Shown: one piece after another, positions 401 to 25,918 of the stretch
How the letters are laid out: each line of letters starts with the position of its first letter
Position numbering within the stretch: the first letter of the stretch is position 1
From: an uncultured delta proteobacterium
GTDB taxonomy: Bacteria; Desulfobacterota; Binatia; UBA9968
Assembly (NCBI GenBank): GCA_963816145.1
Contig: CAWFJP010000014.1
Span: 192,001-256,000 of the forward strand
Reading direction: 5' to 3'
DNA: 64,000 bases
The notes under the pieces: model-generated
Seen by the model: only the letters and a program-made list of their open reading frames with translations
Databases searched by the model: none
What the model was told of the DNA's origin: nothing
Made by a program: the position numbers and the translations under genes

Positions 401-470
401 TTGGAGTCATGGAGTGCTGGACTGCGGCAAGGACCACAACTCCAGTGCTCCAATACTCAATTACTCCGAT
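401..470. repeat. Palindromic 8-nt-period repeat (TGGAGTNN units mirrored by CTCCAATA-like units)
   Basis: ttggagtcatggagtgctggactgc...caactccagtgctccaatactcaattactccga between two genes. Confidence 0.55.
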
Positions 471-1189
471 TGGTCTTTGTTTCGGCTCAGCCGGGTGACG
501 AAATATTCCCAGCCGCGCAGCGGAAAACGTTGGTCGGCGTTATACACTTCCAACTCTTCAGCAGTGAGATATTTCGGTTGGCCGTGCAAGAGGGCCAAGT
601 GATTCCACTCGCCCAACATCGCTAACCTGGTGGTGCGCTCGATCATCTGCTCTACGCTTTCGCCGACGACCGCGTCGCCGTGAGCGCGCATGAGGACCGC
701 CGGTCCGTCGCCGAGCGCGGCTGCCAAGTCGTTGCCGCGCTCGAGCGTGCGCACTAAGCCAACGCCCTCGTACACCGGCGGGCCGTCGGCGGAGAGAAAC
801 TTGCCATAATGGTGCAGCGGTTTGAGCTTGATCGGCAGCACGCTGAAGATCGTGCTCCATTTCGAGTGGGTATGGGCCACGCTGACGATTTCCGGACGGG
901 CTTTGAAAATGCAGGCGTGGATCGGCCATTCGTTGGGCGGGGTGGTGGCACCGTCGAGGTGGTTGCCGGTGAAATCCTGCATGATCAAGCGGTCGCGCGT
1001 GACCGATCCAGGGCTGATATTGGCGATGGTGATAAACGCGTCGGCGCCAGGCACGCGCACGCCGACGTGGCCGTATCCGTCAGTAACCCCTTCATGATCG
1101 AGAATATGACAGGCGGTAATCAGTTTGTCGGTGAGCTCTTTGAGCTCGGCGGAGTCGATGGTGGGAACATCTTTGCGATTGGTGGCCAT
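461..1189 (-). CDS. Class II aldolase/adducin family protein
   Basis: GYGHVGVR, PPNEWPIHACI, SVAHTHS, LMRAHG motifs; likely start MATNRKD at 1189. Confidence 0.9.
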   Translation of the reverse strand: MATNRKDVPTIDSAELKELTDKLITACHILDHEGVTDGYGHVGVRVPGADAFITIANISPGSVTRDRLIMQDFTGNHLDGATTPPNEWPIHACIFKARPEIVSVAHTHSKWSTIFSVLPIKLKPLHHYGKFLSADGPPVYEGVGLVRTLERGNDLAAALGDGPAVLMRAHGDAVVGESVEQMIERTTRLAMLGEWNHLALLHGQPKYLTAEELEVYNADQRFPLRGWEYFVTRLSRNKDQSE

Positions 1190-1262
1190 GCCGGTTCCTT
1201 CACGCGGATTGCGCGATAAAATCATCTGTTCGCCGCGACTCTAGTTGCGGTTATTCTAGCTG

Positions 1263-4048: not shown

Positions 4049-5047
4049 TTATTTCAGCCCCAGACTCCTGACGAAGCCGCTCTCGTCCAATTCCTTCACG
4101 ATACTGTCGTCGAGAATTTCTTCCACCTTGACGTCCTTGACCTTGGGATTGTCGCGGGCGGTAAAGTCGATCAGGGTTTTCCAGCCGCGGTTGACCGGGT
4201 AGGGGACTTTAGCGCGGATCTTGTTCACGTAGATGTCGTAGGCGACTTCCAGGATTTCGTCGTCGTTGACGCCGCCGTGGCTGGCCAGCAATTTTTTCGA
4301 CAGCGGTTTGTTTTCTAGGTTTACCTTGATCGCTTCGAGGTAGGCTTTCATGAAGCTGACAACCACCGGTCTCTTGGACTGCATGAACCGGCGCGTGGTG
4401 GCGACGCCGTTGAACGGGAAGTCGCCGCCGAGTTTCGAGATATCGATGAGCGTGTTGTAGCCCTGGCGCGCAAGCAGTTGCGCGAAGGAGTTGCCAAGAC
4501 CCATGGCTGCCGCGGAGATTTGGCCGGCCTGGAGCGCCGTGTAAGTTTCGCGCAGGCCGCCGGTGTAGATGACTTTCACGTCTTTGTCCGGCACCAGCCC
4601 ATGATGGCTGAGGCCGAAGCGCGCCCAATAGTCTGTGTTGGCGCCGCGCCGGGTGACGCCCACCGCTTTGCCTTTGAGATCATTCGGTTGCTTGATCTCG
4701 GGGCGCGACATGATTTGCGCCGCCATGCTGTTGATGATGGTGGCGATGAACACTGCGTCGACGCCCGCGGCTTTGCCGAAGAGCACGGCGGAGCCACCGA
4801 TCTGGCCGATCTGCACGTCGCCCGAGATCATCGCCTGGATGATTCTTGTGCTGCCGCCGAGATAGACTGTGCTGACATCGAGGCCGTACTTTTCGAACAA
4901 GCCGGTTTTTGACGCGGTGATCAGGGTCAGTTCGGACGGGCTGATCGATGAATAACCGGCGACGAGTTTTTCCGCGGCGGAACCATGCCGCGTCAGGGCA
5001 GTGCTGAGTATGACGAGGGCGACGAACGCAATGGATAGTTGTCTCAT
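4049..5047 (-). CDS. ABC transporter substrate-binding protein, NMT1/SsuA/TauA type
   Basis: Signal peptide, GLFEKYGLDV, DLKGKAVGVTRRG, C-terminal DDSIVKELDESGF. Confidence 0.85.
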   Translation of the reverse strand: MRQLSIAFVALVILSTALTRHGSAAEKLVAGYSSISPSELTLITASKTGLFEKYGLDVSTVYLGGSTRIIQAMISGDVQIGQIGGSAVLFGKAAGVDAVFIATIINSMAAQIMSRPEIKQPNDLKGKAVGVTRRGANTDYWARFGLSHHGLVPDKDVKVIYTGGLRETYTALQAGQISAAAMGLGNSFAQLLARQGYNTLIDISKLGGDFPFNGVATTRRFMQSKRPVVVSFMKAYLEAIKVNLENKPLSKKLLASHGGVNDDEILEVAYDIYVNKIRAKVPYPVNRGWKTLIDFTARDNPKVKDVKVEEILDDSIVKELDESGFVRSLGLK

Positions 5048-5187: not shown

Positions 5188-5955
5188 ATGGGCAAGCTCA
5201 GACATATCGCCTTTATTTCCAACGAACCGAAAGTGCAAAGCGATTTTTACCAAAAGTATTTCGGTTTCGAGGAATGCAAGGTCTTTCCCAGCGGCTCGCG
5301 CATGGTGATCGACCCGTTGTTCAATCTCGCCTTCTTGCAGCAGGCGGCCGTGTCGGTGGCGGTTTCCGGGACGCATCGAGCCGATGGCAGCGAGACCGAG
5401 TTGACGGTGGGAATACATCACTACGGTTTCCTGGTGGACAATTTGGAGCAAGCGGTCGCCAAATTGCCGGCGGGCGTAACCCGCGGTGCCAACCCGCAGA
5501 TCTCCGCCGGCGTCTCTGGCCCCGAAGCGGCGCGGCCAGCCGAAGTGCGTTTCATCGACCCCTGGGGCAACAACGTCGATCTGTCGTCGCGCGGTTATTT
5601 GGGGCGAGAAGAAAAGAAACTTCCCGCCGTGCGTCTACTCGCTGTGCAGGTGCCCGATTTGGCCGCGGCGTGCGAGTTTTACCAGCAACAGTTCGGTCTC
5701 GAGATCGCCGGCTGGACCGATGACGGGACAATTCGCTTGAGCGACGGCACGCTGACGCTGATGTTGACCAAGTCACAAGTGCGTCCAAAGGGTGGCGTGC
5801 AGTATTTTGGCATTCAGGTGAGCGATATTACCGGTCTCAAGAAGCGCTTACAGGACGGCGGTGTGGCAGTTTCGGATAACACCAATGGGCAGATTCAGTT
5901 TAACGATCCGGAAGGGAATCGGGTTGTGGTATCGGAAACTGGGTGGGCGAATTGA
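5188..5955 (+). CDS. VOC/glyoxalase family protein (two domains)
   Basis: KLRHIAF, GIHHYGFLV, DPWGNNVDL, DPEGNRV; RBS GGAGGT. Confidence 0.85.
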   Translation: MGKLRHIAFISNEPKVQSDFYQKYFGFEECKVFPSGSRMVIDPLFNLAFLQQAAVSVAVSGTHRADGSETELTVGIHHYGFLVDNLEQAVAKLPAGVTRGANPQISAGVSGPEAARPAEVRFIDPWGNNVDLSSRGYLGREEKKLPAVRLLAVQVPDLAAACEFYQQQFGLEIAGWTDDGTIRLSDGTLTLMLTKSQVRPKGGVQYFGIQVSDITGLKKRLQDGGVAVSDNTNGQIQFNDPEGNRVVVSETGWAN

Positions 5956-6161: not shown

Positions 6162-8075
6162 TCAGGTTTTTGCGCCAAGTGCCCGCGCGATATAATCGCG
6201 CCGAACCTTGGTGCGCGGAACTTTGCCGGTAAACCAGCTCCGCACATCGGCGTCGAGGCCGATGCCGTGCATGTAGTTGTACAACGCCTTGTTCAGGGCT
6301 GTGCCGAGGGCGTCGTGGTCGACGCCGATGGGGTCGAGGAAGCCGACGTCGTTTTTGGCGAACGAGATCTCCGGCAAAGGGACGAGCGTGACGCCGTATT
6401 GTTCGGGATGCTTGCCCACCGGTGAATGCACCGTGCAGGCAAAGCGGTGGAAGAAGCCTGACTGGATGCAGCCGGCTATGAACAATTGCCGGACATATTC
6501 GAGGGCATCAACCGTGTCTTGCACGGTTTGGGTCGGGAAGCCGTACATCAAATAGGCGTGGACGAGAATGCCGGCGTCGGAAAATGCGCGCGTGACTCTG
6601 GCGACTTGCTCGACGCTGACGCCCTTCTTCATTAAATTGAGCAGGCGGTCGGAGGCGACCTCGAGCCCGCCGGATACCGCGATGCAGCCGCTGTCGACGA
6701 GTTCTTGGCAGAGCTGCGGCGTGAAAGATTTCTCGAAGCGAATGTTGCCCCACCATGAAATGGCCAGCTTGCGTTTCTTGATCTCGGCGGCGAGTGCTTT
6801 CAAGGTTTTTGGCGGTGCGGCCTCGTCGACGAAATGAAATCCGGTCTGTTGGGTTTCGGCGATGACGGTCTCGATGCGGTCGGCCAGGGTTGCGGCGGCG
6901 AGGTCGTCGTAGCGCGAGATGTAGTCGAGGGTGACGTCGCAGAAACTGCACTTTTTCCAGTAGCAGCCGTGGGCGACGGTGAGTTTGTTCCAGCGGCCGT
7001 CGGACCACAGCCGATGCATCGGGTTGAGCATGTCCAGTAGCGACAAGTAGCCGTCGAGCGGCAGTCCGTCCCAAGTCGGCGTGCCTACTTCCGCGAATGG
7101 AATGTCGGGCTCGCGTGCGTCGATGTAGCGGATTGTGGATTTATCGGCAGTGCGCCGGAAGGTGCGAACCAAATTGCTTTCGGGCCGGTTGCCGCCCAGA
7201 TATTCTAATAACGCCAACAGCGGCCGCTCGCCGTCATCCAAGGTGACATAGTCGAAATAATCGAACACCCGCGGCTCGCTCAGTTCGCGCAGCTCGGTGT
7301 TGACATAGCCGCCGCCGAGCGCGGTGATTATCGATGAATCGCGGGCTTTGATCGCCTGGGCGATGCGAAACGCGGCGTACACCGAGCCTGGGAACGGCAC
7401 CGAGAGCAGCACCAGATTCGGCGCATGGCGCGCCAGCGCCGCCAGCGTTAGGTCACGCAGTGTGCTGTCGACCAGATTGAGCGGCGCGGCCAGCGCTTCG
7501 GCGAGGGGATCGAAGGTCGGTTGGCTTTGCGCTAGAGACTCGGCATAGCGGACGAACTCAAAGCGCGGGTCGACGGCCTCGCGCAACACGTCGGCGAGAT
7601 CATCGAGGTAAAGAGTCGCCAAGTGTTTAGCGCGGTCTTCTATCCCAAGCGCTCCGAACGCCCAAGCCAGTGGATCGTCGGTGCCGCCTTGCAGATAAAA
7701 ATCTATTGGCTTGAAGCGCGGCCCTTCGGGAAGGAATTGCCGTCCACAAATGCGATGCGCCAGGGTCGGATCACGCCCCTGCAGGAACGCGATGGCGGGG
7801 GTGATCGTCGAGAGATAACGGTCGAATTTCTGGAGAAATGCTTTGGCGATCGGCGAACGCTTGCGCTGCGGGATCGCCTCGGCACGGTCCCGGATGGCTA
7901 ACAGCCCGTCAGTGGAAAAAAGCTTTAAGACTAGAGCCAATGCAAGATCTTCCTGCACAGCATCGAAACCCCGCGAGCGCAAGAAGCCGGTGAGATATGC
8001 CGTTGACGGATATGGCGTATTTAGCTGAGTCATCGGTGGGATTAGCGACAGCACGCGAATAGAATTGGTCGACAT
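6162..8075 (-). CDS. B12-binding-domain radical SAM protein
   Basis: PPMTQLNTPYPSTAYL N-terminus, GCYWKKCSFC (CxxxCxxC), FHFVDEA, SGGLE, AYLMYGFP. Confidence 0.9.
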   Translation of the reverse strand: MSTNSIRVLSLIPPMTQLNTPYPSTAYLTGFLRSRGFDAVQEDLALALVLKLFSTDGLLAIRDRAEAIPQRKRSPIAKAFLQKFDRYLSTITPAIAFLQGRDPTLAHRICGRQFLPEGPRFKPIDFYLQGGTDDPLAWAFGALGIEDRAKHLATLYLDDLADVLREAVDPRFEFVRYAESLAQSQPTFDPLAEALAAPLNLVDSTLRDLTLAALARHAPNLVLLSVPFPGSVYAAFRIAQAIKARDSSIITALGGGYVNTELRELSEPRVFDYFDYVTLDDGERPLLALLEYLGGNRPESNLVRTFRRTADKSTIRYIDAREPDIPFAEVGTPTWDGLPLDGYLSLLDMLNPMHRLWSDGRWNKLTVAHGCYWKKCSFCDVTLDYISRYDDLAAATLADRIETVIAETQQTGFHFVDEAAPPKTLKALAAEIKKRKLAISWWGNIRFEKSFTPQLCQELVDSGCIAVSGGLEVASDRLLNLMKKGVSVEQVARVTRAFSDAGILVHAYLMYGFPTQTVQDTVDALEYVRQLFIAGCIQSGFFHRFACTVHSPVGKHPEQYGVTLVPLPEISFAKNDVGFLDPIGVDHDALGTALNKALYNYMHGIGLDADVRSWFTGKVPRTKVRRDYIARALGAKT

Positions 8076-8415: not shown

Positions 8416-8790
8416 ATGCGCGTGCTCAAAATCAACGATCTTAAGGAAACCCCGATGGACACGGCAACGCCGATCGCCGGCTGGACCGGCGGGGCGGTGA
8501 GCCGGACGCGGCAGGCGGTCATCGGCGATGGGCAGTCGGACAACTTCCGCTGTAACGTGGTCAACTTTCGCGTCGGCGCCACCACCGGCTGGCATGTCCA
8601 TGACTGCGATCAGATTCTCGTGGTCACGGCCGGCAAAGGCTTCGCCGCGACGGAGAGTGAACAGCGCGAGATCACCGTCGGCGATATCGTGCATATTAAA
8701 TCTGGCGAGCGCCACTGGCACGGCGCTTCGGCGGATTCGCCGCTGTCGCATATCACGGTGACGACGGTGGGCAGCACTTCGAAGCATTAG
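8416..8790 (+). CDS. Cupin domain protein
   Basis: TGWHVHDCDQIL...GKG and GERHWHGA cupin motifs; RBS AAGGAGG. Confidence 0.88.
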   Translation: MRVLKINDLKETPMDTATPIAGWTGGAVSRTRQAVIGDGQSDNFRCNVVNFRVGATTGWHVHDCDQILVVTAGKGFAATESEQREITVGDIVHIKSGERHWHGASADSPLSHITVTTVGSTSKH

Positions 8791-8850
8791 CCGGTCGGTT
8801 ATGATTTTGGGCGAAGGTTTGGTATCGGGACCGTTCCAAGGAGGATTTTC

Positions 8851-9741
8851 ATGGAAATTATCCGCGGCAACTTGAGCGATATCAAAGGCATCCCGCCGAG
8901 CGGTTTATGCGTCGGTGTGCACCGCGCCGGCGCGGTGCATAAGAAGATGGTCGCCAAGCATGGCGACGGTCTGGCGGTCTGGTCGCTTAGGCCCGATCTC
9001 GATTTCATCGCGTTCAAAAAGGAAGGCCTTGGTGAACAGGGGATTCGCTCGACCAACGACATGGCATCGATCGACGGCAATGAAAAACTGATTTATGGCG
9101 TGCGCGGCGCGCCGCCCGAGGTGCGCGAAACGGCGCGCGAGAAAGGTCTGACGCTGCTCGCCGACGCGACCTGTCCCTTTGTTTTACAGCAGGAAGAGGC
9201 CGAGATCGAGCTACTCAACGACGGGCGCCACTTGGTGTTACTCAGTAGTCCTACCCATCACGGCGTGCCGAGGATTCAAGGCATCGCGCGGACCAAGGGT
9301 AAAGAAGTCTTTATCGTCGAGCATGAGGACCAGGTCGACTCGATCCATCTGACTCGATTCGAACCCATCGGCGTGATCGTGCAGACGACTTTCTGGGTGG
9401 AAACCTACAAGAAAATCGTCGCCCGTTTACTGGAGCATTTCGCCAACGTGCAAATTCGCAACACTTCCTGCATCGACTCGCTGCAGCGCCTTCCCGAAGT
9501 CGAGAAGCTCGCCAAGCAAGTCGAAGCGATCGTTATTTTTGGCTGGACCGAAGGGATGACCACCCGGATGCTCGAAGTGGCGCGCGCTTTCAATCCGAAT
9601 GTTTACAAAATCGAGAAGGTGGACGATCTCCGGCTCGACTGGCTGCGCGGCAAGGAAACGGTCGGTATCATCGGTGCCAACGAGACACCCGAATGGATGA
9701 TGAACGATGCCATCGAGCGTATGAAGAGCATGGTGGCCTGA
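8851..9741 (+). CDS. Divergent IspH/LytB-fold [4Fe-4S] reductase (probably not a functional HMBPP reductase)
   Basis: Three cluster Cys retained (SGLCVGV, DATCPFV, NTSC) plus QTT, but the VHN, AHG, HPE, SSN and GAS motifs are altered; RBS AAGGAGGA. Confidence 0.8.
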   Translation: MEIIRGNLSDIKGIPPSGLCVGVHRAGAVHKKMVAKHGDGLAVWSLRPDLDFIAFKKEGLGEQGIRSTNDMASIDGNEKLIYGVRGAPPEVRETAREKGLTLLADATCPFVLQQEEAEIELLNDGRHLVLLSSPTHHGVPRIQGIARTKGKEVFIVEHEDQVDSIHLTRFEPIGVIVQTTFWVETYKKIVARLLEHFANVQIRNTSCIDSLQRLPEVEKLAKQVEAIVIFGWTEGMTTRMLEVARAFNPNVYKIEKVDDLRLDWLRGKETVGIIGANETPEWMMNDAIERMKSMVA

Positions 9742-9744
9742 ACC

Positions 9745-10026
9745 GTGCCGAAGATCACTTTCATTCCAGCGGAAAAATCGTTCGATGTCGCGCCAGGCAC
9801 GACCATCCTGGTTGCCGCAGTGCAAAACGGATTGCACCTGCGCCATGATTGCACCGAAGCGGTTTGCGGCACCGACCGGGTGAAGATCCTTTCCGGTGCG
9901 GAGCAGCTGAGTGCAATAACCGACAACGAGGAATTGACCCTCGAGATGATGAACGCGGGGCCCAACGAAAGGCTGGCTTGCGTCGCACGGATCGCCGGCG
10001 ATGTGATTGTCGAAATGCCCGAATAA
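9745..10026 (+). CDS. 2Fe-2S ferredoxin-like protein, third ligand Cys replaced by Asp
   Basis: HDCTEAVCGTDRV...ERLAC; GTG start 3 nt after the upstream stop. Confidence 0.85.
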   Translation: MPKITFIPAEKSFDVAPGTTILVAAVQNGLHLRHDCTEAVCGTDRVKILSGAEQLSAITDNEELTLEMMNAGPNERLACVARIAGDVIVEMPE

Positions 10027-10045
10027 GCGACTCTAAGGAGAATTA

Positions 10046-11152
10046 ATGCCGGCACCTGTGGCAATTCTAGCAAAACCGGACGATCACCGCGGCATTCTCA
10101 CCATGGCAGAAGCGGTCGACGCGATGCTCGATGCATTTCGCAATTGGGCGAATGACCCGCTGGTGGCGGAGCTGCGGCGACGCACGCACACGCCGAAGAA
10201 CGTGCGCATTACCCTACATCAGGGCGCGGCACCGGCTTATGGCACGACGGGCATCATGACCCATGCGGAGCTTGTGCGCATTTTCGGCGACAAACAAAAA
10301 TATCCGCGCCGCGGCCGCCCGGTTCTGGTGCTTTATGACAGCGACACGGCGGCTTTGAAGCTCATTCTCGTCGGCGAAATGCATCCCAAGGAGCTGCCGG
10401 ACGCCAACAGCGTGGTGGCGATGCCGACGGCCTGTGCCTCGATGGTCGGCACCGATTTGCTCGCGCGCAAAGACTGCCGGGTCGCCGGGGTTTTCGGTGC
10501 TGGAGATCAAGCGAAGATGCATCTCCTGGCGCTCACCTGTATTCGCAAGTCGATTGACAAGGCGCGCGTCTTCAGTCCGACCCGCGAGACTCGCGAAAAC
10601 TTTGCCGCGGAAATGAGCGCCGTATTGGGCATCGCAGTGACCGCCGCGGAGAGCGCTGCAGATGTTGTCGACGGCGCCGACGTAATCCTGTGCGCGACCA
10701 ATTCAAATGTTCCGGTATTCGACGGCAATTGGCTGGTTCCCGGCCAACATGTCACCTCGATCGTTTCGAGCAATATCGGATTGAAAAAGCGCGGCCACGT
10801 CATTGAAATGCGCCGCGAGATCGACGAGAGGACTCTGGAGCGGGCCGATATTTTGCTGACCAACGTTTGGGGACAGGAAGAGCTGGACAAGACCGCGGTG
10901 TTCTGGGAAGCCTCTCTCGATCGCCCAAACATCGCGGGCAAGATTGTCGATAGCGGAGAGCTCATCCGCGGTGAAAAAAGCGGACGAACCGACGCTGCTC
11001 AAATTACCTATTTCAAAAACTGCGCGTTTTGGGGTATTGGCGCGGCGGCCATCGGCGGACTGATCTATGACAAACTCTTGCAGCAGCGCAAGGGTTTGGC
11101 GCTCGACTTCAACCCGCATGAGTTCTATGACGATACTTGGGCGGAGGATTAG
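10046..11152 (+). CDS. Ornithine cyclodeaminase/mu-crystallin family protein
   Basis: GVFGAGDQA Rossmann motif, VFSPTRE, ADVILCATNS, GRTDAAQITYFK; RBS AAGGAG. Confidence 0.85.
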   Translation: MPAPVAILAKPDDHRGILTMAEAVDAMLDAFRNWANDPLVAELRRRTHTPKNVRITLHQGAAPAYGTTGIMTHAELVRIFGDKQKYPRRGRPVLVLYDSDTAALKLILVGEMHPKELPDANSVVAMPTACASMVGTDLLARKDCRVAGVFGAGDQAKMHLLALTCIRKSIDKARVFSPTRETRENFAAEMSAVLGIAVTAAESAADVVDGADVILCATNSNVPVFDGNWLVPGQHVTSIVSSNIGLKKRGHVIEMRREIDERTLERADILLTNVWGQEELDKTAVFWEASLDRPNIAGKIVDSGELIRGEKSGRTDAAQITYFKNCAFWGIGAAAIGGLIYDKLLQQRKGLALDFNPHEFYDDTWAED

Positions 11153-11218
11153 ATTTGTTTGAATGAGCGGGAAGCCTGGGTTACAGCGCGAAGATGATCG
11201 CAAGGAGGATTGGATAGC

Positions 11219-12124
11219 ATGCGCGGTATAACACCGAGACGAGAACAGGGCATGGCCGATCCGGTGTTGGCCGAGATGGTTCATGCCACCGGGGCGACGG
11301 AGTCGCGTCACTACGCGGCGGTGAAGCCGATCATTCAAGCCTATCGCGCCAGTTGGGTGAAGTTGGCGCCGTTTCGCGACGGGCCGGTCAACCCCCAGCG
11401 CGTGCCGGTCGACGATCCGGCGGCGATGACGGCGCAGATCAAGGCGAAGGCGAGCGAGTGGGGCGCCAACTTGGTCGGCGTCTGCCGCCTGCAGCCGCAT
11501 ATGATCGATCTCGGCTCGGAAGTGTCCCACGAGTTTGTCATCGCCTGCTGCGTCGCCGAAGACTACGAAAAGGTGCTTCAAGGCCCGGACGCCGTCGAGG
11601 AAGAGGCGATGCGGACGTACGCGAAGTGCACCGAGATATCCACTGCGTTAGCTGCCTACGTCCGTGAGATGGGATATCCCGCCATCGCGCACCACAACGG
11701 CGCCAGCGAGGTGCAGGCGATCCCAATTTTCTACCAAGTCGGATTCGGCGAGCTCGGCCGGCATGGCAGTCTGATCAATGAAAAGTATGGCGCGAGCTTT
11801 CGCCCTGGTTTCGTCACCACCGATTTGCCGCTCGTCGAAGACCAGCCGCGAGAGTTCGGCGTTCAGGACTTCTGCATGAACTGCAACGTTTGCCAGCGCA
11901 ACTGCCCGGGCGACGCGATCCCGCAAGACCATGTCATGACCCATGGCATCAAGCGCTGGCTGATCGATTTGGAGAAGTGCTATCCGTATTCCCGCCTGCG
12001 CGAGGAGTATTGCCATCTCTGCGTCGACGTCTGCCCGTACAACGTGAAGTCGCATCCGGACACGTACAAAGCGCTTATGAAAGAGCGTAAACAGGTTGGC
12101 TATAAGACACCAAAGACTTATTGA
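11219..12124 (+). CDS. Reductive dehalogenase-like cobalamin/2x[4Fe-4S] protein (short, no Tat signal)
   Basis: WGANLVGV, GFGELGRHGSLI, VTTDLPL, CMNCNVCQRNCP and C-x10-CHLCVDVCP. Start uncertain (11163 with a frameshift, 11219 or 11252). Confidence 0.75.
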   Translation: MRGITPRREQGMADPVLAEMVHATGATESRHYAAVKPIIQAYRASWVKLAPFRDGPVNPQRVPVDDPAAMTAQIKAKASEWGANLVGVCRLQPHMIDLGSEVSHEFVIACCVAEDYEKVLQGPDAVEEEAMRTYAKCTEISTALAAYVREMGYPAIAHHNGASEVQAIPIFYQVGFGELGRHGSLINEKYGASFRPGFVTTDLPLVEDQPREFGVQDFCMNCNVCQRNCPGDAIPQDHVMTHGIKRWLIDLEKCYPYSRLREEYCHLCVDVCPYNVKSHPDTYKALMKERKQVGYKTPKTY

Positions 12125-12203
12125 AGCGAGTTTGCACTAAGAGATCTCGGAAAAGAATATTTTCCCGCAAAGGCGCAAAGGCGCTAAGTTCGGAAAGGTT
12201 GGG

Positions 12204-12401
12204 ATGGAAAAGCTTTACGTCAATGCCATCGGACCCGACGGTGATGTCAGCACTGTCGGTTTGTTTTACTCGCAACCTGAAGCGCAAAAAACTGTTGACA
12301 TGCTGGGAACCAATCCCGAGCGAGTCGGTTATCGCTACGAAATCGTCGAAGCGGTGCGGCATGTGCTTTCAGAAAAAAATCCGCCAACCAGCAAGGAGTA
12401 G
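12204..12401 (+). CDS. Small hypothetical protein (65 aa)
   Basis: ATG start; stop overlaps the RBS (AAGGAG) of the next gene; co-directional within the cluster. Confidence 0.55.
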   Translation: MEKLYVNAIGPDGDVSTVGLFYSQPEAQKTVDMLGTNPERVGYRYEIVEAVRHVLSEKNPPTSKE

Positions 12402-12403
12402 CC

Positions 12404-12955
12404 ATGCCCTATATCAAGACGATTCCGCCCACAGAGGCGACCGGAAAACTGAAGGAAGTCTATGAAACGGCGGGCGGCCCTTCGGCGGCGCGCGGCAAGG
12501 TCGCGATGGTGCGCCAGGTGCAAAGCCTCAATGCCGACGCGCTCGCCGCCTGGAGCGATCTTGGCGCAGCGATCATGCACGGCCCGTCGCGCCTGAGCAG
12601 GCGCCAGCGCGAGATGATCGCCACGGTGGTGTCGGCGACCAATCATTGCAGCTATTGAACGACTGCGCACGGAGAGGCTCTCCGTAGCGAAACCCACGAC
12701 GATCCGTTCGTCAAAGCGATTAAACAGGATTACACCAAGATTGATTTAACGGCAGCGGAGCGGGCCATGCTCGATTACGCGGTGAAACTGACGGTGACGC
12801 CGTCGAGCGTAACGGCAGAAGATGTTTTGATATTGCGCGCTCATGGGTTCGACGACCGCGATATACTCGACATCATCTACGTTGTTTGTTTGTACAATTT
12901 TAACGACCGGCTGGCCGACGCGACCGGCATCAAAGGGCATGATTTTCTTAGTTGA
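12404..12955 (+). CDS. AhpD/carboxymuconolactone-decarboxylase-like peroxidase, predicted selenoprotein (CxxU), 183 aa
   Basis: ORF-track pieces 12404-12658 and 12767-12955 are in frame across a single TGA (12656-12658): REMIATVVSATNHCSY-U-TTAHGEALR...AERAMLDYAVKLT...YNFNDRLADATG. TGA occupies the second Cys of the AhpD CxxC..H motif. Confidence 0.88.
12667..12688 (+). promoter_or_regulatory. Bacterial SECIS-like hairpin
   Basis: GC-ACGGAGA-GGC-TCTCCGT-A-GC; G-containing loop about 17 nt after the UGA. Confidence 0.7.
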
Positions 12956-12994
12956 CATCGTCCGCCGCCGGGTGTGACGCACAGGTTGGCCATT

Positions 12995-13876
12995 ATGCCG
13001 TTCAGCTACGCCGAGTTCATGACTCAACTGATGGCGCCCAAGCCCTATCCAGCGCAGGCGGTTTTTACCGCGCCCCGGATAACGGCACTGCGCAAGCCGG
13101 TTGCAGAATGCACCCTCGGTGTCTTTACCAGCTGTGGCGCACAGCTGAAGGACGACCGACCGCTGGCCGAGACCAACGATCTTTCCTACCGGCTGCTGCA
13201 CCGTGACGTAGCGCTCTCGGAGCTGAAGATCAATCACATGACGCCGTCGCGCAAGTGGGCGCTGGAGGACTTGAACGTCGCTTATCCGCGCGACCGGCTG
13301 ATCGAGTTGGAGGCGGAGGGGGTTTTCAAGAAGCTTGCGCCCAGCGCCGTTTCCATGGTCGGTTCGATCACGTTGTACACGGAGCTTTTGAGCGATGCCG
13401 TGCCGCGGATCAAGCAAGAATTCGACCGGCAGGAAGTCGACCTGGTGCTGATCGTGCCGTTTTGACCGCAATGCCATCGGTCCGTGGGACTGATCGCAAG
13501 AGGACTGGAAGCGAGAGGTTTGCCGACCGTGAGCCTGAGCACCGTATGGGACATCACTCTGGCGGTAAAACCGCCGCGGCCATGCTTCCTGGATTTCCCG
13601 ATCGGCTGTCCGGTCGGCAAGCCGGGCATGCCGGAATTGCAGCGGCAAATACTGAAAGCGGTCTTCTCCCAGGCGGAGAAATTTACCGGTGATTGGGCGC
13701 TGCATGAGCTGCCCTTCCAGTGGGCAAAGGATGGCAGCCGTCATTGGGAGGAAGAGCTCAAGGATCTCTACCGGCGAGGCCTCGGCACGGTGGAGGCGCA
13801 TGTTGCGGATCATCGCCGTCGCGGTGAGGCGCTGATCGGTCAAGAGGAAGCGTTTGCGCTGCGCTGCAATTGCTAG
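12995..13876 (+). CDS. Glycine/sarcosine/betaine/proline reductase selenoprotein B (GrdB/PrdB)-like protein, UxxC, about 293 aa
   Basis: Pieces 12974-13465 and 13484-13876 are in frame across TGA 13463-13465: VDLVLIVPF-U-PQCHRSVGLIARGLEARGLPTV...KPPR. N-terminal LRKPVAECTLGVFTSCG and DLNVAYPRDRLIELEAEG match this family. Confidence 0.88.
13472..13498 (+). promoter_or_regulatory. Bacterial SECIS-like hairpin
   Basis: TGC-C-ATCGGTCC-GTG-GGACTGAT-C-GCA; G-first loop about 18 nt after the UGA. Confidence 0.7.
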
Positions 13877-13933
13877 CGTCCTGTCCACCCACTGACCGCC
13901 AGCCAATGAACGTATGAAAAGGAAGGTGCTGCG

Positions 13934-14719
13934 ATGATCGAACTCTATCACAACGACATGTCGGTGTGCGCGCAAAAGGTGCGTTTTACCCTGGCCGAGA
14001 AGAAACTTGCTTGGGACAGCCACCATATGAATCTGCGCGCCGGCGATCAGCAAAAGCCGGAATATTTGAAACTCAATCCCAACGCCCTGGTGCCTACCCT
14101 GGTCGACGATGGCACCGTTATTATCGAATCCACCGTGATCAACGAATATCTCGATGACGCGTATCCCGACCTGCCGCTGCGTCCGGCGGCCGCGACCGCG
14201 CGGGCGCGCATGCGTCTATGGACCAAACAGTTGGATGAAGGCGTTCACGCCGCGACCAGCGTGGTCAGCTCGGCGATCGCCTTTCGCTATCAAAAGCTCG
14301 CCATCGGCATGGAAGCGCTCGAAGAATTTCACAGGAAGATGCCCGACCCGGTGAAGCGCGAGAAGAGCTGGGAGAATGTCACCAAGGGCGTCGAGTCGCG
14401 CTTTTTCCCCGAGGCGGTCATGCGCTTCGACAAATTGCTTGGCGACATGGAGTCGGCCTTGAAAGACTCTCCGTGGCTCGCCGGCAAAGAGTTCTCGCTG
14501 GCCGATATCGGCTACGCGCCCTATGTTACCCGGCTCGATCACCTGCAACTGCAATTTCTCTGGGACAAGCGGCCGCACATTCCAGAATGGTACGATCGGC
14601 TGCGCGAACGGCGCGCGTATGGTGAGGCGCTGGAAAACTGGTTCAATCCCGCCTATTTGCCGCTGATGAAGGAAAAAGGATCGGAAGCGCGAGCCCGGGT
14701 CAAAGAGATCGTCGGCTAA
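13934..14719 (+). CDS. Glutathione S-transferase family protein
   Basis: SVCAQKVR, YLKLNPNALVPTL, IESTVINEYLD, WLAGKEFSLADI. Confidence 0.92.
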   Translation: MIELYHNDMSVCAQKVRFTLAEKKLAWDSHHMNLRAGDQQKPEYLKLNPNALVPTLVDDGTVIIESTVINEYLDDAYPDLPLRPAAATARARMRLWTKQLDEGVHAATSVVSSAIAFRYQKLAIGMEALEEFHRKMPDPVKREKSWENVTKGVESRFFPEAVMRFDKLLGDMESALKDSPWLAGKEFSLADIGYAPYVTRLDHLQLQFLWDKRPHIPEWYDRLRERRAYGEALENWFNPAYLPLMKEKGSEARARVKEIVG

Positions 14720-14916: not shown

Positions 14917-15774
14917 TTAGGTAGTCGCCACCAGCAGTTCCTCTGAATTCTTTGGCGGAAGAAGGCCATCTGTCCTGCCCGCGAAGTAGCGTTGGGCAAG
15001 CGTAGCTGCCGATACGTGCTCAACCTCTCTAAAGCCGGCATCGCGGGCCAGTGTCAGCATCTCTGTTGGCGTGAAGAAGCTGATGAACGGCGTGCCGTTT
15101 GCTCGCGCCCCCGCTAGCGCTCGCTCAATCCCGGGACGCACCTCGGGGTCCGTCATCTCGATCGGAAGCAGGAATGACATGGCGAGTGTGGAGCCGGGAG
15201 CGAGCGCCGCGACCTGGCGCAGCGTCGCCGTAATCGCGTCCTTGGTCAGGTACATGCTGACACCGGTCGACGCCACGACCGCGGGCCGCTCAGGGTCGAA
15301 TCCCGACGCAGCCAGCCGCTCGCACCATGGATCGCCTGCCTCGAAGTCGACTGGCACGAGCCGCAAGAACGACGGAATGCCGAAGCCGAGTTCGACGAGG
15401 CGCTGGCGCTTCCACATCTGAGGGCCGGGCTGATCGATCTCGAACACGACCAGACGGGAGGCAAGCTCCGGCCGACGCTGGGCGAAGGTGTCCAAGCCCG
15501 CTCCAAGGATGACGTACTGCCCGACGCCACGGGCAGCTTGCTCCGCGACGAGATCTTCGATGAAGCGGGCGCGGGCCACGATGGAGGCGCGGAATGGCCG
15601 CGTGAACGGGCTCATGTCCGGACGGCTGCGCCATCCGTCGTCTGGAGCCGCCAGCTTCAAGCCGACTTCGTCTTCGAGTACGTGCGGCGGCGAGTCGACT
15701 TCGACATGCAGCGCCCGCCACAAGGCGACCCGCACCGCCGTGTTGTCTGGCGCCGCCACTTGCGTATCATGCAC
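14917..15774 (-). CDS. SAM-dependent methyltransferase (LCM/TIGR00027-like), cassette-borne
   Basis: TAVRVALWRA, ARARFIED, QYVILGAGLDT, VFEIDQP, GVSMYL. Confidence 0.9.
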   Translation of the reverse strand: MHDTQVAAPDNTAVRVALWRALHVEVDSPPHVLEDEVGLKLAAPDDGWRSRPDMSPFTRPFRASIVARARFIEDLVAEQAARGVGQYVILGAGLDTFAQRRPELASRLVVFEIDQPGPQMWKRQRLVELGFGIPSFLRLVPVDFEAGDPWCERLAASGFDPERPAVVASTGVSMYLTKDAITATLRQVAALAPGSTLAMSFLLPIEMTDPEVRPGIERALAGARANGTPFISFFTPTEMLTLARDAGFREVEHVSAATLAQRYFAGRTDGLLPPKNSEELLVATT

Positions 15775-16637: not shown

Positions 16638-17594
16638 TCAGCGCTTTGCCCCATTGGCGACCTTCATCTCGGCGTCCACTTCGTCCTCGAATGCGCGACG
16701 CTTCGACGCAACAAACTGCCGGTAGCCCTCGGGGTCCATCCACGCGTTGACGCCCTCGTTCACGGCGCGCTTGCGCTTCGCCTCCATGCCGAAGTACTCG
16801 GTGTGGTGTGCAAGCCAGATGTCCGGCTTGAGCATCTCCCAGGTATGGAGCGTCCGCCGGTAGTCGTCCTCGACGCCGGGGTACGAGGGATCTCGTGCCG
16901 CGACCCGGTAACCCGGATTGAACCCGCCGCCGTCTGGAAACACGACGGCGTAGGCCTTGCCAGTCTCGAAGAGTGTTGTGGTCCACGTCGTCGCACCGCG
17001 TGTATGGCCGGGCGTATGGAGAGCCGTGAGCAGCACGTCACCGAGCCGGACCTGGACGCCATCGCGGAGCACACGGTCGACCTTCACGGGCGGCTGGCCC
17101 ATGACCTGCCAGTCCTTGCCGTAGTGAAAGTCGCTCTTGCCTCCGTCCTCAACCATCGCGACGTCTTCCTGCATGATCGCGACCTGCGCGCCTGACAACT
17201 GCTTCAGGTAGGCGAACGCGCCCGCGTGGTCGGAATGGCCATGGCCATTGATAATGATCTTGATGTCTTCAGGCGTGAAGCCGAGCTTGCGAATCGACCC
17301 GACGATCATCGGGCCGGATTTCGGCGTGCCTGTATTCAGCAGGATGTGGCCCTCGCGTGTCGCGAACAGCCACGAGCTCAACCCCTGTGTACCGACGAAG
17401 TACAGTGGTCCGACGATATGGATCGGCTCCGCAGGTTCGTCCCACTTCAGGTATTTCGTGGCGAGTTCGATGAACAGCTTGTTGTCGTTCGCGAGCTGTT
17501 CCTTCGTCGGGGCGTTCGGCGGCAGCTCCTGCGCACCGGCCGAGAGCACTAGCGAGGCTGCGAGCGAAACGGCAATGAACCAACGCTTCTTCAT
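16638..17594 (-). CDS. Subclass B3 metallo-beta-lactamase (FEZ/BJP/L1-like), secreted
   Basis: Signal peptide MKKRWFIAVSLAASLVLSAGA, PIHIVGPLYFVGT, HGHSDHAG (HxHxDH), TPGHTRG, DIWLAHH. Confidence 0.88.
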   Translation of the reverse strand: MKKRWFIAVSLAASLVLSAGAQELPPNAPTKEQLANDNKLFIELATKYLKWDEPAEPIHIVGPLYFVGTQGLSSWLFATREGHILLNTGTPKSGPMIVGSIRKLGFTPEDIKIIINGHGHSDHAGAFAYLKQLSGAQVAIMQEDVAMVEDGGKSDFHYGKDWQVMGQPPVKVDRVLRDGVQVRLGDVLLTALHTPGHTRGATTWTTTLFETGKAYAVVFPDGGGFNPGYRVAARDPSYPGVEDDYRRTLHTWEMLKPDIWLAHHTEYFGMEAKRKRAVNEGVNAWMDPEGYRQFVASKRRAFEDEVDAEMKVANGAKR

Positions 17595-17667
17595 GGCGAT
17601 GCTCTCCCTCGGCAGCAATCACTGCACCACCGGTTTCGAGGACGACTGCAATGCGGCGTCCAATGCC

Positions 17668-18618: not shown

Positions 18619-19650
18619 CTACCGCCCGGATTGCAAAGCCACTCGTTTCCTCGCTTCCGCCAGGTAGCCGTTTTCTTCGAGCGCTTTCACGACGCTCATG
18701 TTGATGGATTCGTTGACGTCGACTTGGCCGGCCTTGGGATTGACCCGGGCGATGAATCTTTGGATATTCTTCCACGCCGCCGGGTCCGGCGCGATGTCGA
18801 GGCTGGTCATCGAACGCACGGAAAGATACGAGGTCTCGGCATCCTCGTCGGTGGTCAGGCGCAGGTGTTTTTTCATAACCTCGGCGACTTCCCGTTTGTT
18901 GCGCGGATCGAGAATGTAAACGATGCCGTCGATCATGCCTTTGGTGAGGCGCATGATCAGGTCGGGAGAAGCGGCCAGTCGCTCAGCCCGTCCACAGATA
19001 CCCACAGTCTGCAGCGGGATGCGCAGATCCGACGAGTTGACCAACGAGCGCATGCCGCCGCGCTTGGCCACCGCCGCGGAGGGCAAGGTCACGACCGCGG
19101 CATCTATGTTCGCACTGAGCAGTGCTTGGACGATGGTCGGTTCATCGCCGATGACGCGAATTTTCATGCCCAACTTGTCGGGGTCGAGGCCGAGACCGTC
19201 CAGGACCATCATAGTCTGGAGCCAGAATCCGCCGCCGATGCTTTGCACTCCGATAGTCTTGCCGCGCAGCGCCGCCACCGAGTCAATATCCTTGCGCACC
19301 ACCAGTTCGCGCGAAATCCCCTTGATCGGGAACGCGACGCAACCGATCTTCACCCCGGCCGACACGCCGCTCAGTACATTGCCGACCGACGGTAGAAAAA
19401 TCGGCACCTCGCCCGACACCAGCGCCGCCAAACTGATCTGCGCGTTACGCACCTGCAGCAAGCGCGCGTCGATCCCGTGCTTTTGATAGAGCCCTTTGTC
19501 GATCGCCACCCAATAGGGGCCGATGGTTTCGTTATGGCCGCCGTAGGCCATCAGCACAACGTCATCGGCGTGGGCTCGCCCTAGGAGCGAGAAAAACAGA
19601 ACGATGGAAATGCATCGACAAAGTCTCCAGGGTAGAAGCGCCAAATACAT
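18619..19650 (-). CDS. ABC transporter substrate-binding protein, NMT1/SsuA type
   Basis: Signal peptide, YWVAIDKGLYQKHGID, LRGKTIGVQSIGG, VVKALEENGY. Confidence 0.82.
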   Translation of the reverse strand: MYLALLPWRLCRCISIVLFFSLLGRAHADDVVLMAYGGHNETIGPYWVAIDKGLYQKHGIDARLLQVRNAQISLAALVSGEVPIFLPSVGNVLSGVSAGVKIGCVAFPIKGISRELVVRKDIDSVAALRGKTIGVQSIGGGFWLQTMMVLDGLGLDPDKLGMKIRVIGDEPTIVQALLSANIDAAVVTLPSAAVAKRGGMRSLVNSSDLRIPLQTVGICGRAERLAASPDLIMRLTKGMIDGIVYILDPRNKREVAEVMKKHLRLTTDEDAETSYLSVRSMTSLDIAPDPAAWKNIQRFIARVNPKAGQVDVNESINMSVVKALEENGYLAEARKRVALQSGR

Positions 19651-25773: not shown

Positions 25774-25918
25774 ATTCTCCGCCCGATGCAATTTAGGGTT
25801 GAGCAATGAAGGTCGTATACCGACGCCGCTCGACCGAAAAGGCGCACTTGTGATATTGGTCGCAGCCGTGAGTAATTTTCTACGAGCAGAGTTGCGCAGC
25901 GTTTTTGCTTGCTGCGTC

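Follow-up and report, generated by a model that had tools for sequence, protein, structure and literature searches.

Do nine co-directional redox genes at positions 8416 to 14719 of a Binatia contig encode one pathway, a more flexible operon, or a chance assembly of accessory genes? We analyzed the gene layout of the locus, its counterparts in related genomes, and the protein families encoded within it. The window is the whole stretch of DNA analyzed (64 kb).

Layout and gene content of the array

Open reading frames were listed under translation table 11 and with TGA read as selenocysteine (U), and the products were scanned for known families. Nine plus-strand genes fill the interval exactly, separated in 5′ to 3′ order by 60, 3, 19, 66, 79, 2, 39, and 57 nt (Table 1). 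The tight, co-directional packing described in the initial annotation is thus borne out, and its family calls (an IspH-like protein with an altered site, a Fer2 protein with a putative Asp ligand, an OCD enzyme, a short RdhA, two selenoproteins, and a GST) were all right. It had also anticipated that standard gene callers would mislabel the IspH homologue and miscall the selenoproteins; JGI indeed calls the homologues HMBPP reductase, and protein databases hold the Sec genes only as Cys-type or split ORFs. The array lies between a divergent B12-radical-SAM gene at its 5′ side and a convergent LCM methyltransferase gene at its 3′ side. A terminator-like scan gave six sites versus 7.9 expected from shuffles, and there is therefore no evidence of internal termination. 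Judged by their spacing, the nine genes are probably co-transcribed.

Table 1. Genes and SECIS-like hairpins of the array, with neighboring genes of the window
Feature	Coordinates	Strand	Length (aa)	Characteristics
VOC protein	5188–5955
B12-radical-SAM gene	6162–8075	−		5′ flank
Cupin_2 protein	8416–8790	+	124	First gene of array; Pfam Cupin_2, 37.7 bits
IspH-like [4Fe-4S] protein	8851–9741	+	296	Pfam LYTB, 151.4 bits
[2Fe-2S] ferredoxin, plant-type spacing	9745–10026	+	93	Pfam Fer2, 43 bits; C-x4-C-x2-D...C
OCD/mu-crystallin NAD(P)-dependent enzyme	10046–11152	+	368	Pfam OCD_Mu_crystall, 113.5 bits
Short cytoplasmic RdhA/NpRdhA-like protein	11219–12124	+	301	Two [4Fe-4S] motifs; RDH TIGR02486, 119.2 bits
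Conserved 65-aa protein	12204–12401	+	65	Companion of Rdh-like gene
AhpD-like (TIGR01926/COG2128) selenoprotein	12404–12955	+	183	C-S-Y-U; UGA at 12656–12658
SECIS-like hairpin, AhpD-like gene	12666–12689	+		10 nt past UGA; 3-nt loop, G first
PrdB-like selenoprotein	12995–13876	+	293	F-U-P-Q-C (UxxC); UGA at 13463–13465
SECIS-like hairpin, PrdB-like gene	13472–13498	+		9 nt past UGA; loop GUG
Glutathione S-transferase (GST)	13934–14719	+	261	Last gene of array; Pfam GST_N_2, 65 bits; GST_C_2, 43.7 bits
LCM methyltransferase gene	14917–15774	−		3′ flank

An AAGGAGG ribosome-binding site precedes the cupin gene, whose product scored 80 bits against the NCBIfam (R)-mandelonitrile lyase model (cutoff, 140). 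The top solved relative of the OCD protein is a delta1-pyrroline-2-carboxylate reductase (6t3e, E = 7e-27). The highest-scoring NCBIfam models for the GST, FzlA (75.1 bits) and maiA (74.9 bits), did not reach their cutoffs.

Gene order and content in related loci

In total, 59 related loci were retrieved by two clade-specific peptide patterns, and the sample is therefore biased toward the IspH-like clade; all derive from Binatia-type MAGs, with binning errors visible in the record titles. The complete nine-gene set occurs in 0/59 loci and in 0/22 of those in which 5 kb or more of sequence follows the IspH-like gene. Within the latter, the ferredoxin gene is present in 22/22, the OCD gene in 7/22, the Rdh-like and 65-aa genes in 5/22, a complete GST gene in 2/22, and the PrdB-like gene in 1/22. 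The IspH-like and ferredoxin genes are the sole constant pair, the latter following the former in 29 loci. Comparison of nucleotide blocks indicated that the remaining genes are present or absent as whole cassettes, with the order and strand of the window retained and the boundaries located in spacers. The block running from the IspH-like gene through the ferredoxin, OCD, Rdh-like, 65-aa, and AhpD-like genes recurs in three loci (L008, L011, and L058), and in L015 without the AhpD-like gene. The OCD gene was found in 10/59 loci, and cupin orthologues (86 to 94%) in L003, L004, L005, and L059, with a partial copy in L019. GST orthologues are complete in L001 and L003 and persist as remnants in L019 (310 nt of the 3′ end) and L005 (53 nt of the 5′ end). 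Such deletion remnants suggest that the ancestral array was longer.

The initial annotation had proposed that the nine genes form one dedicated, undescribed Se/B12/Fe-S pathway, with every product required for the degradation or detoxification of one substrate, a small amine or a halogenated compound. The retention of order and strand wherever the genes are present upholds part of this proposal, as do the shared direction, the gaps of 2 to 79 nt, the recurring block, and an order that is never permuted. The obligate nine-gene set, however, did not hold up. Besides the incompleteness of all 22 adequate loci, relatives with IspH-like proteins 84 to 89% identical retain the core but shed whole cassettes, and a different set of partners lies beside the IspH-like gene in 25 other Binatia loci. 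The conserved-synteny comparison across related MAGs thus lends no support to a single obligate pathway, which we consider improbable. The related genomes show mix-and-match cassettes rather than one fixed nine-step pathway, and the cassettes are probably individually dispensable accessories.

Alternatively, unrelated redox genes might have come to lie on one strand of a variable region by chance, with neither regulation nor function in common. Gene content does vary greatly among close relatives, and the window overall is an accessory-type region that includes an IS1182 transposase along with numerous orphan binding proteins and oxidoreductases. Several features argue against such a juxtaposition: the spacers are very short, including the 2- and 3-nt junctions; deletions spare flanking genes and spacers, and cassettes recur by the same core in the same order and strand; the Rdh-like and 65-aa genes stay together in 6/6 loci; and L008 clusters up to five AhpD-like genes at the core, of which four carry TGA where Sec is expected. 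Since order and strand are kept, the orthologues are not scattered, as the initial annotation had held they should be in a chance assembly, and we regard this reading as unlikely. Collinearity among relatives may reflect common descent with deletions and is by itself no proof of a functional link.

We favor, at a probability of roughly 0.6, a flexible, lineage-specific Binatia operon, probably co-transcribed, in which an IspH-like/ferredoxin core is joined by optional cassettes in fixed order. These cassettes would comprise the cupin, an OCD-type imine reductase or cyclodeaminase, the short NpRdhA-like protein with its 65-aa companion, one or more AhpD-like CxxU proteins, the PrdB-like UxxC protein, and the GST.

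The IspH-like protein and its ferredoxin

IspH requires ferredoxin or flavodoxin as an electron donor, and the presence of a ferredoxin partner likens the window protein to canonical IspH. It could accordingly be the housekeeping HMBPP reductase of Binatia, equipped with its own donor and surrounded by incidental neighbors. The gene recurs at 66 to 89% identity in 58 species-level genomes with GC contents of 51 to 69%, internal branches within its clade are short, and in L020 to L022 it adjoins Fe-S assembly genes, SufT-like and Mrp/NUBPL. No second IspH was found in the window and ∼1 Mb of loci, which cover a small part of each genome.

The putative active site speaks against this housekeeping role. 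Residues were mapped onto the Aquifex and E. coli enzymes. Like canonical IspH, the protein has a full-length LYTB domain and the three Cys ligands of the [4Fe-4S] cluster (equivalents of C12, C96, and C197). Only 2/9 HMBPP-binding or catalytic residues are retained, H124 and T167 (H136 and T179 in the window protein); unlike canonical IspH, it has F52 for H41, R85 for H74, G138 for E126, a gap for S225, G235 for S226, M236 for N227, and E278 for S269. Glu126 is essential in E. coli IspH. The diphosphate-contacting residues are retained in 0/6 cases, and the clade carries the motif HHG where canonical IspH has HPE. All seven NCBIfam IspH models scored under their cutoffs (e.g., TIGR00216, 130.4 versus 187.85). 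Among 1.84 billion representatives, the only intermediates between the IspH-like protein and canonical IspH (24 to 33%) were P0016 (82%), P0243 (46%), P0248 (39%), P0262 (35%), and P0263 (36%). In the tree, the Binatia clade (SH-aLRT, 98) is set apart from 78 canonical rows (support, 95). Moreover, the gene is accompanied by redox or decarboxylase genes rather than by isoprenoid genes. A housekeeping HMBPP reductase is therefore an unlikely identity; with its pocket and Glu126 lost and its clade narrow and separate, the protein probably reduces a different anionic substrate.

The ferredoxin gene begins with GTG 3 nt past the IspH-like stop codon. Its product shares the Fer2 domain and C-x4-C-x2-X...C spacing of plant-type [2Fe-2S] ferredoxins such as the solved Ferredoxin-4 (PDB 9i2a) but, unlike them, has three Cys only, with Asp aligned to the third Cys ligand. 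This Asp, a putative ligand, is part of a motif (HDCTEAxCGTDRV) invariant in 24/24 ferredoxin orthologues. An Asp ligand occurs in the cluster of E. coli SdhB. What is new at this locus is the IspH paralogue together with a ferredoxin of its own, and for these we infer the following function. Single electrons would pass from the ferredoxin to the IspH-like [4Fe-4S] cluster, whose unique iron would bind an oxygen function of the anionic, non-HMBPP substrate at a site with Arg85 in the position of His74, His136 retained, and Glu278 in the position of Ser269. The cluster would then perform a two-electron reductive C-O cleavage.

In the 25 high-GC Binatia loci with other partners, a gene for a PhdA-like UbiD decarboxylase follows the IspH-like gene in place of the ferredoxin. 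These loci also carry TIGR00725 (25/25), an AI-2E permease (23/25), and a VOC protein upstream of the IspH-like gene (14/25). The UbiD-family product matches PDB 7pda (E = 5e-112), followed by HudA/PA0254 (8e-56); 7pda is identified as PhdA in PMC10850782. PhdA is a prFMN-dependent phenazine-1-carboxylate decarboxylase. The likeness to PhdA belongs to these 25 loci, and the PhdA-like gene is absent from the 64-kb window. In L003 and L005, only a 46% paralogue is present, on the upstream side. The recurrence of VOC, PhdA-like UbiD, Amidohydro_2, and NpRdhA-like proteins as neighbors hints weakly that substituted aromatic or N-heterocyclic acids are reductively catabolized or detoxified. The neighbor families on which this theme rests are abundant in the genomes concerned; SsuA-type binding proteins, for instance, are encoded at least four times within the 64 kb.

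The Rdh-like protein and the selenoproteins

The Rdh-like gene has candidate starts at TTG 11210, ATG 11219, and ATG 11252, and its TIGR02486 score lies below the cutoff of 160.35. The best solved relative is NpRdhA (PDB 4ras, E = 3.6e-55). As in NpRdhA/BhbA-type dehalogenases, there are two [4Fe-4S] motifs, and Tyr 426 of NpRdhA is retained; Lys 488 is replaced by Arg, and Arg 552 falls in an alignment gap. Unlike NpRdhA (704 aa, two core domains), the protein and its homologues have 290 to 301 aa and one core domain. Neither a Tat twin-arginine motif nor a membrane-anchor gene was seen among the window ORFs and homologue sequences. The ferredoxin may also feed this reductase-less enzyme, a presumed cobalamin user. 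A further difference from NpRdhA is the constant pairing with the 65-aa protein of unassigned family, which is 52 to 86% identical across the six loci holding both. This Binatota-only protein had no match in Pfam or NCBIfam, and its nearest Atlas clusters are Binatota hypotheticals. The top PDB fold match of its model (pLDDT 76) was PaaB, which is not significant (E = 0.69).

Both selenoprotein families are previously described: the GOS and Sargasso papers include AhpD-like 1 (COG2128) together with its CxxU motif, and in these marine metagenome surveys the "proline reductase PrdB" family (pfam07355, UxxC) is listed as abundant. Recoding of both in-frame TGAs as Sec is supported by conservation in orthologues and by SECIS-like hairpins. 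The CxxU and UxxC proteins and the GST might carry out thiol/selenol redox or conjugation steps.

The PrdB-like protein resembles the selenoprotein subunit of D-proline reductase (PrdB) in having a UxxC motif in a PrdB/GrdB-related domain, and scored 115.5 bits against NCBIfam PrdB TIGR04483 (cutoff, 300). Unlike PrdB, it is a stand-alone form of 292 to 294 aa that is widespread as Cys homologues, in which the invariant Cys of F-C-P-x-C-H aligns with U; among the window's annotated genes, none was recognized as a PrdA-type partner. No PDB relative was found by sequence or by fold (model pLDDT 90). The TGA is retained in L001, the sole orthologue available, where the hairpin is identical (−14.1 kcal/mol, z = −2.2; 6/200 shuffles equally stable).

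The AhpD-like protein has the CxxU motif of AhpD-like 1 and exceeds the TIGR01926 cutoff (143.6 versus 81.8 bits), the match spanning the TGA. Unlike the described family, it belongs to several paralogue groups in tandem beside the IspH-like/ferredoxin pair, an arrangement for which no description was found in the literature. The TGA is retained in L005, L008, L011, L014, and L058, as well as in three further paralogue groups. The hairpin (−14.3 kcal/mol, z = −2.3) was matched in stability by 7/200 shuffles. Over 20 UGA sites, 99.3% of cells are paired, and one pair shows a compensatory GC-to-CG change in five sequences.

Array layout and synteny among related loci

Open reading frames (ORFs) were listed under table 11 and also with TGA read as selenocysteine (Sec), and families were assigned by Pfam and NCBIfam scans. 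Both confirm the run of nine co-directional genes at 8416-14719 that the initial annotation had described, with gaps of 2 to 79 nt (5′ to 3′: 60, 3, 19, 66, 79, 2, 39, and 57 nt). On either side of the array lie a B12-binding radical-SAM gene, which is divergent, and an LCM-type methyltransferase gene, which is convergent; the GC content of the array is unremarkable compared to the window. A promoter/terminator consensus scan of the array region returned counts at or below the shuffle expectation, with no excess, and Rfam and tRNA scans of the 64-kb window returned no matches. One terminator-like hairpin with a T-run is located inside the 65-aa ORF, just past the Rdh-like gene, and may be a chance occurrence, because the regional total of such sites is below the shuffle expectation.

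Features of the array and of its setting in the window
Feature	Position	Strand	Remarks
Class II aldolase	461-1225		3,4-dihydroxyphthalate-decarboxylase-like
SsuA/NMT1-family protein	4049-5047		orphan substrate-binding protein
VOC-type protein	5188-5955		
B12-binding radical-SAM protein	6162-8075	-	637 aa; divergent from the array
Cupin	8416-8790	+	124 aa
IspH-like	8851-9741	+	296 aa
Fer2 ferredoxin	9745-10026	+	93 aa
OCD/mu-crystallin	10046-11152	+	368 aa
RdhA-like	11219-12124	+	ATG 11219 or 11252 favored over TTG 11210 (homologues 290-301 aa)
65-aa ORF	12204-12401	+	no known family
Terminator-like hairpin	12235-12259	+	inside the 65-aa ORF
AhpD-like	12404-12955	+	TGA 12656-12658
PrdB-like	12995-13876	+	start from homologues beginning MPYSF; TGA 13463-13465
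GST	13934-14719	+	261 aa
Subclass B3 metallo-beta-lactamase homologue	16638-17618	-	NCBIfam 299.5, cutoff 240
SsuA/NMT1-family protein	18619-19650		orphan substrate-binding protein
Beta-propeller repeat protein	25799-29755	+	1,319 aa
IS1182-family transposase	39407-40963	+	397.7 bits, cutoff 270
SsuA/NMT1-family protein	43037-44083		orphan substrate-binding protein
SsuA/NMT1-family protein	47092-48093		orphan substrate-binding protein
Molybdopterin oxidoreductase	52153-54558	+	802 aa; Fdh-alpha-like, 276 bits, below cutoff

Related loci (L001-L059) were retrieved from one-genome-per-species GTDB contigs by means of an alignment of IspH-like proteins (identity, 66-89%). All 59 are Binatia-type metagenome-assembled genomes, some otherwise named, probably through binning or older taxonomy; because both search patterns are clade specific, more distant relatives fall outside the sample. 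The loci were scanned by tblastn with the nine window proteins and two flanking proteins. An ORF-family map was drawn with a codon-position filter against antisense ORFs, which still wrongly selects the antisense strand at the TGA-split PrdB gene.

A ferredoxin gene follows the IspH-like gene in 29 loci (L001-L026, L049, L057, and L058); in 22 of them, the sequence extends ≥5 kb downstream. The ferredoxin is present in all 22, the OCD gene in 7, the Rdh gene together with the 65-aa gene in 5, an AhpD orthologue at ≥73% identity in 4 (a fifth, in L003, at the nucleotide level only), a complete GST gene in 2, and the PrdB gene in 1. The cupin gene was found in 3 of the 18 loci with sufficient upstream sequence. 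The seven short contigs contribute further OCD genes (L002, L004, and L049) and an Rdh-65aa-AhpD run (L014). Neither partner is within approximately 1.4 kb of the IspH-like gene in L046 and L050, and L053, L056, and L059 terminate at this gene.

None of the 22 loci carries all nine genes (0/22). The initial annotation had read the nine genes as possibly one undescribed selenium/cobalamin/Fe-S reductive pathway, and this reading fails the synteny test, the ferredoxin alone being constant. The conservation that was proposed as its check is found for the ferredoxin and for the gene order, not for the full set.

Cassette boundaries were delimited by aligning the array with ten loci at the nucleotide level. 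These loci keep the window's order throughout, with whole genes missing at the spacers. L001 lacks exactly the OCD (10045-11195) and AhpD (12385-12994) genes, and L003 lacks Rdh-65aa and PrdB. In L005, cupin, IspH-like, ferredoxin, and AhpD genes are accompanied by 53 nt left from the GST 5′ end (L005:11946-11998), and L019 (9983-12613) follows the array through OCD and then passes directly into the final 310 nt of GST. The remnants in L005 and L019 argue for a longer ancestral array that underwent deletions. The L019 matches to cupin, IspH-like, and OCD are partial. Other relatives carry extra cassettes that are missing from the window. Two or three further AhpD-like genes can stand between the cupin and IspH-like genes, and there are genes for AhpC/TSA, OsmC, another type of GST, a nitroreductase, and a GntR regulator. 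The picture is that of a pan-operon with a fixed core, the IspH-like/ferredoxin pair, and optional redox cassettes. A chance juxtaposition of the array genes fits poorly with the invariant order, the 2- to 3-nt junctions, and the clean cassette boundaries. In L020 (3160-3456), L021 (11865-12962), and L022, the core is followed convergently by Fe-S assembly genes, which encode a SufT-like FeS_assembly_P protein and an Mrp/NUBPL-type carrier.

The IspH-like protein and its ferredoxin

The LYTB domain spans the full length of the IspH-like protein (Pfam PF02401, 151.4 bits, residues 16-292). In an alignment with Aquifex and E. coli IspH, the [4Fe-4S] cysteine ligands of the E. coli enzyme (C12, C96, and C197) correspond to C20, C108, and C207, and His124 and Thr167 are retained as H136 and T179. 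The column of Glu126, the catalytic proton relay of IspH, is occupied by G138. None of the six diphosphate-binding residues is kept (His41 is F52, His74 is R85, Ser225 falls in a gap, Ser226 is G235, Asn227 is M236, and Ser269 is E278), so that 2/9 non-Cys functional residues survive. The substitutions of HHG for HPE and of RGAPP for the His74 motif are clade-wide. All seven NCBIfam IspH equivalog models score the protein below cutoff (e.g., TIGR00216, 130.4 versus 187.85; NF002187, 138.6 versus 276). The protein shares with HMBPP reductase the complete LYTB domain and the three cluster cysteines and differs from it at Glu126, at the diphosphate-binding positions, and in the equivalog scores. 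Judged from the alignment, the loss of Glu126 and of the entire diphosphate pocket argues against the protein being the housekeeping HMBPP reductase of Binatia. Eight canonical IspH queries run against the loci and the window, seeking a second IspH, returned the IspH-like gene itself and no other.

An exhaustive search of 1.84 billion representative proteins yielded 3,589 relatives at an E value of 0.001 or better. The closest (P0001) is 92% identical and encoded on a 41,882-nt contig, and canonical IspH proteins are 24-33% identical. The interval between the window protein and canonical IspH is bridged only by a single 50% cluster (P0016, 82%) and by P0243, P0248, P0262, and P0263, which are sparse, full-length relatives (46, 39, 35, and 36%, respectively). 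A quick IQ-TREE tree was built from 97 rows: the window protein, 13 of the 59 loci, the 4 distant relatives, and 79 canonical sequences, the latter being matches of 270-330 aa among P0265-P0389. The Binatia IspH-like sequences are monophyletic (SH-aLRT, 98), and the canonical set is split off by a branch with a support of 95, with one long-branch canonical row outside.

Homologues are named HMBPP reductase by JGI and hypothetical by NCBI; the former bears out the mislabeling that the initial annotation anticipated. It had also known of no described operon with this composition, and among the papers listed by searches of one literature library, we found no account of the array or of an IspH paralogue with such a diverged function. 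The terms IspH, mevalonate, DOXP, isopentenyl, and selen- are absent from the Binatota genome paper.

The ferredoxin begins 3 nt past the IspH-like stop codon and has only three cysteines. The third Cys-ligand position of plant-type ferredoxins is an Asp when aligned with PDB 9i2a, and the motif HDCTEAxCGTDRV is invariant in 24/24 ferredoxin orthologues. An Asp-ligated [2Fe-2S] cluster has a precedent in E. coli SdhB, and the Asp of the array ferredoxin is a putative [2Fe-2S] ligand. A fusion of the two proteins through the IspH-like TGA, by Sec insertion or read-through, was considered and rejected, as the homologues all end alike (...SMAA). Longer database entries do not support a fusion, the 375-aa ones being N-terminal mis-starts and the single 370-aa one carrying an internal duplication.

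Cassette proteins and selenoproteins

The best solved relative of the OCD-like protein is a delta1-pyrroline-2-carboxylate reductase (6t3e, E value of 7e-27). The Rdh-like protein scores 119.2 against TIGR02486 (cutoff, 160.35) and contains, C-terminal to the corrinoid domain, two [4Fe-4S] motifs, CMNCNVCQRNCP and CHLCVDVCP (Pfam Fer4_7, 36.9 bits). NpRdhA, a catabolic dehalogenase, is matched in both of its halves (4ras, E value of 3.6e-55). Among the NpRdhA active-site residues, Tyr426 is retained, Lys488 is Arg, and the Arg552 column is gapped in the alignment. No twin-arginine Tat motif was seen at its N terminus, and the next gene encodes a soluble 65-aa protein instead of an RdhB anchor; therefore, the Rdh-like protein is nonrespiratory, as is NpRdhA. 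A reductase domain is absent from it. JGI names its homologues ferredoxin or QueG.

The 65-aa protein is 52-86% conserved and occurs with the Rdh-like gene in 6/6 loci. It matches no family, its Atlas neighbors are Binatota hypotheticals only, and its best PDB fold match, PaaB, is not significant (E value of 0.69, TM 0.5). A complex prediction with the Rdh-like protein scored 0.00, which speaks neither for nor against binding. A tblastn search of a plasmid collection with a PrdB-like and the Rdh-like protein recovered distant relatives only (≤35% identity).

With the TGA read as Sec, the AhpD-like protein scores 143.6 against TIGR01926 (cutoff, 81.8), in a match that spans the TGA, and has the CxxC/CxxU motif in the form CSYU. 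The TGA is in frame in five orthologues (L005, L008, L011, L014, and L058; 73-78% identical), and 14 further sites with CRFU or CSYU motifs occur in three other AhpD-like paralogue groups, giving 19 sites in the loci and 1 in the window. A 7-bp hairpin begins approximately 10 nt past each UGA, with 99.3% of cells pairing. Its covariation amounts to one compensatory pair, GC to CG, in five sequences of one paralogue group, where a Gly codon becomes an Ala codon and the matching change, in a Leu codon, is synonymous. Tandem AhpD-like paralogues adjoin the core, up to five in L008 (8114-9875 and 13495-14708) and others in L004, L013, L016, and L059. Four paralogue groups have the in-frame TGA (CxxU) and the common SECIS-like hairpin; in a group with the motif CLRCE, TGA is absent at the Sec position.

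In 18 Cys homologues of the PrdB-like protein, the position of its Sec residue is taken by the first Cys of F-C-P-x-C-H, which is invariant, and the TGA is retained in the single orthologue found (L001, 78%). The hairpin past this UGA folds at -14.1 kcal/mol, and 6/200 shuffles fold equally well. The protein differs from D-proline reductase PrdB in its TIGR04483 score of 115.5 (cutoff, 300), and no PrdA-like pyruvoyl partner was seen in the array or the rest of the window. It has no sequence relative in the PDB and no fold match at an E value of 0.001 despite a confident model (pLDDT 90). The window's annotated ORFs include no Sec-machinery gene (selA, selB, selC, or selD), and the window contains no tRNA.

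In the GOS and Sargasso Sea selenoproteome papers, the marine selenoprotein families of highest abundance include "AhpD-like 1" (COG2128, CxxU) and "proline reductase PrdB" (pfam07355, UxxC). Both selenoproteins are real, as the in-frame UGA at the redox Cys position, the conserved downstream coding, and the SECIS-like hairpins attest, and because those papers list both, they are new members of already described families. Standard gene callers truncate or split both genes, as had been expected.

High-GC loci and a possible function of the core

The IspH-like gene has a second context in 25 high-GC loci (L027-L045, L047, L048, L051, L052, L054, and L055; e.g., L054:10001-14022), with a GC content of 0.58-0.69, proteins 69-71% identical to that of the window, and no adjacent ferredoxin. 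A UbiD-family decarboxylase gene follows in 25/25, at a gap of ∼15-150 nt in 23 and past an insertion of ∼1.3-1.5 kb in L035 and L036. A TIGR00725 protein is encoded downstream in 25/25, an AI-2E permease in 23/25, and an Amidohydro_2 protein nearby; a 346-aa protein upstream in 14/25 is placed by Atlas in the VOC/glyoxalase superfamily (score, 0.98). The best solved relative of the decarboxylase is 7pda (E value of 5e-112), followed by PA0254/HudA (E value of 8e-56); 7pda is the phenazine-1-carboxylate decarboxylase PhdA, according to a passage of PMC10850782. Two low-GC loci, L003 (2225-3646) and L005 (5-1258), encode a UbiD-family paralogue 6-9 kb upstream of the IspH-like gene, with 46% identity to the high-GC decarboxylase; none was found in the 64-kb window. 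The window does encode a VOC-type protein and a dihydroxyphthalate-decarboxylase-like aldolase. Together with the NpRdhA-like enzyme, the neighbor families hint at a chemical theme of substituted aromatic or N-heterocyclic acids.

The best-supported reading, to which we assign a confidence of 0.58, is a flexible operon. At its core, the dedicated ferredoxin would drive a two-electron reductive step by the IspH-like protein on a substrate other than HMBPP, and the optional cassettes would provide B12-, selenol-, thiol-, and NAD(P)H-dependent redox steps.

A more specific proposal is tentative and, taken as a whole, rather unlikely. The IspH-like/ferredoxin pair would be a new type of Fe-S reductase that applies IspH-type organometallic chemistry to a non-isoprenoid, carboxylate-bearing allylic or benzylic alcohol. 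The substrate might be a hydroxylated pyrroline-2-carboxylate in its enamine form, in which case the neighboring Pyr2C-reductase-like enzyme of the OCD type would then reduce the product. Alternatively, it might be a hydroxylated N-heteroaromatic acid that is processed jointly with the PhdA-like decarboxylase found in other Binatia. Aerobic soil Binatia would plug the selenium- and B12-dependent cassettes into the core as a mix-and-match reductive toolkit.

IspH is a textbook single-function enzyme and drug target. A class-wide clade with the cluster ligands, a rebuilt pocket, and its own Asp-type ferredoxin points to a possible second function of the fold; if true, IspH-type reductive chemistry would extend beyond isoprenoid synthesis, and enzymologists would have a defined candidate. 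MEP-pathway inference for Binatia may be wrong, because public annotation names the IspH-like genes HMBPP reductase. With whole cassettes gained and lost in a single ordered array, the locus is a clear case of operon plasticity, and AhpD-like and PrdB-like, abundant selenoprotein families of unknown function, are tied here to a specific genomic context.

Several features of the window lie outside the array. The divergent radical-SAM protein weakly matches PhpK- or RiPP-type methyltransferases, far under the cutoffs, and has an 83% orthologue ∼3.8 kb upstream of cupin in L059 only. At least four SsuA/NMT1-family proteins occur in the window and more in related loci; their co-occurrence with the array is uninformative because these proteins are abundant. 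The subclass B3 metallo-beta-lactamase model was passed by an environmental homologue. The beta-propeller repeat protein and the molybdopterin oxidoreductase are unrelated to the array, and the IS1182-family transposase marks this region of the window as rearrangement-prone.
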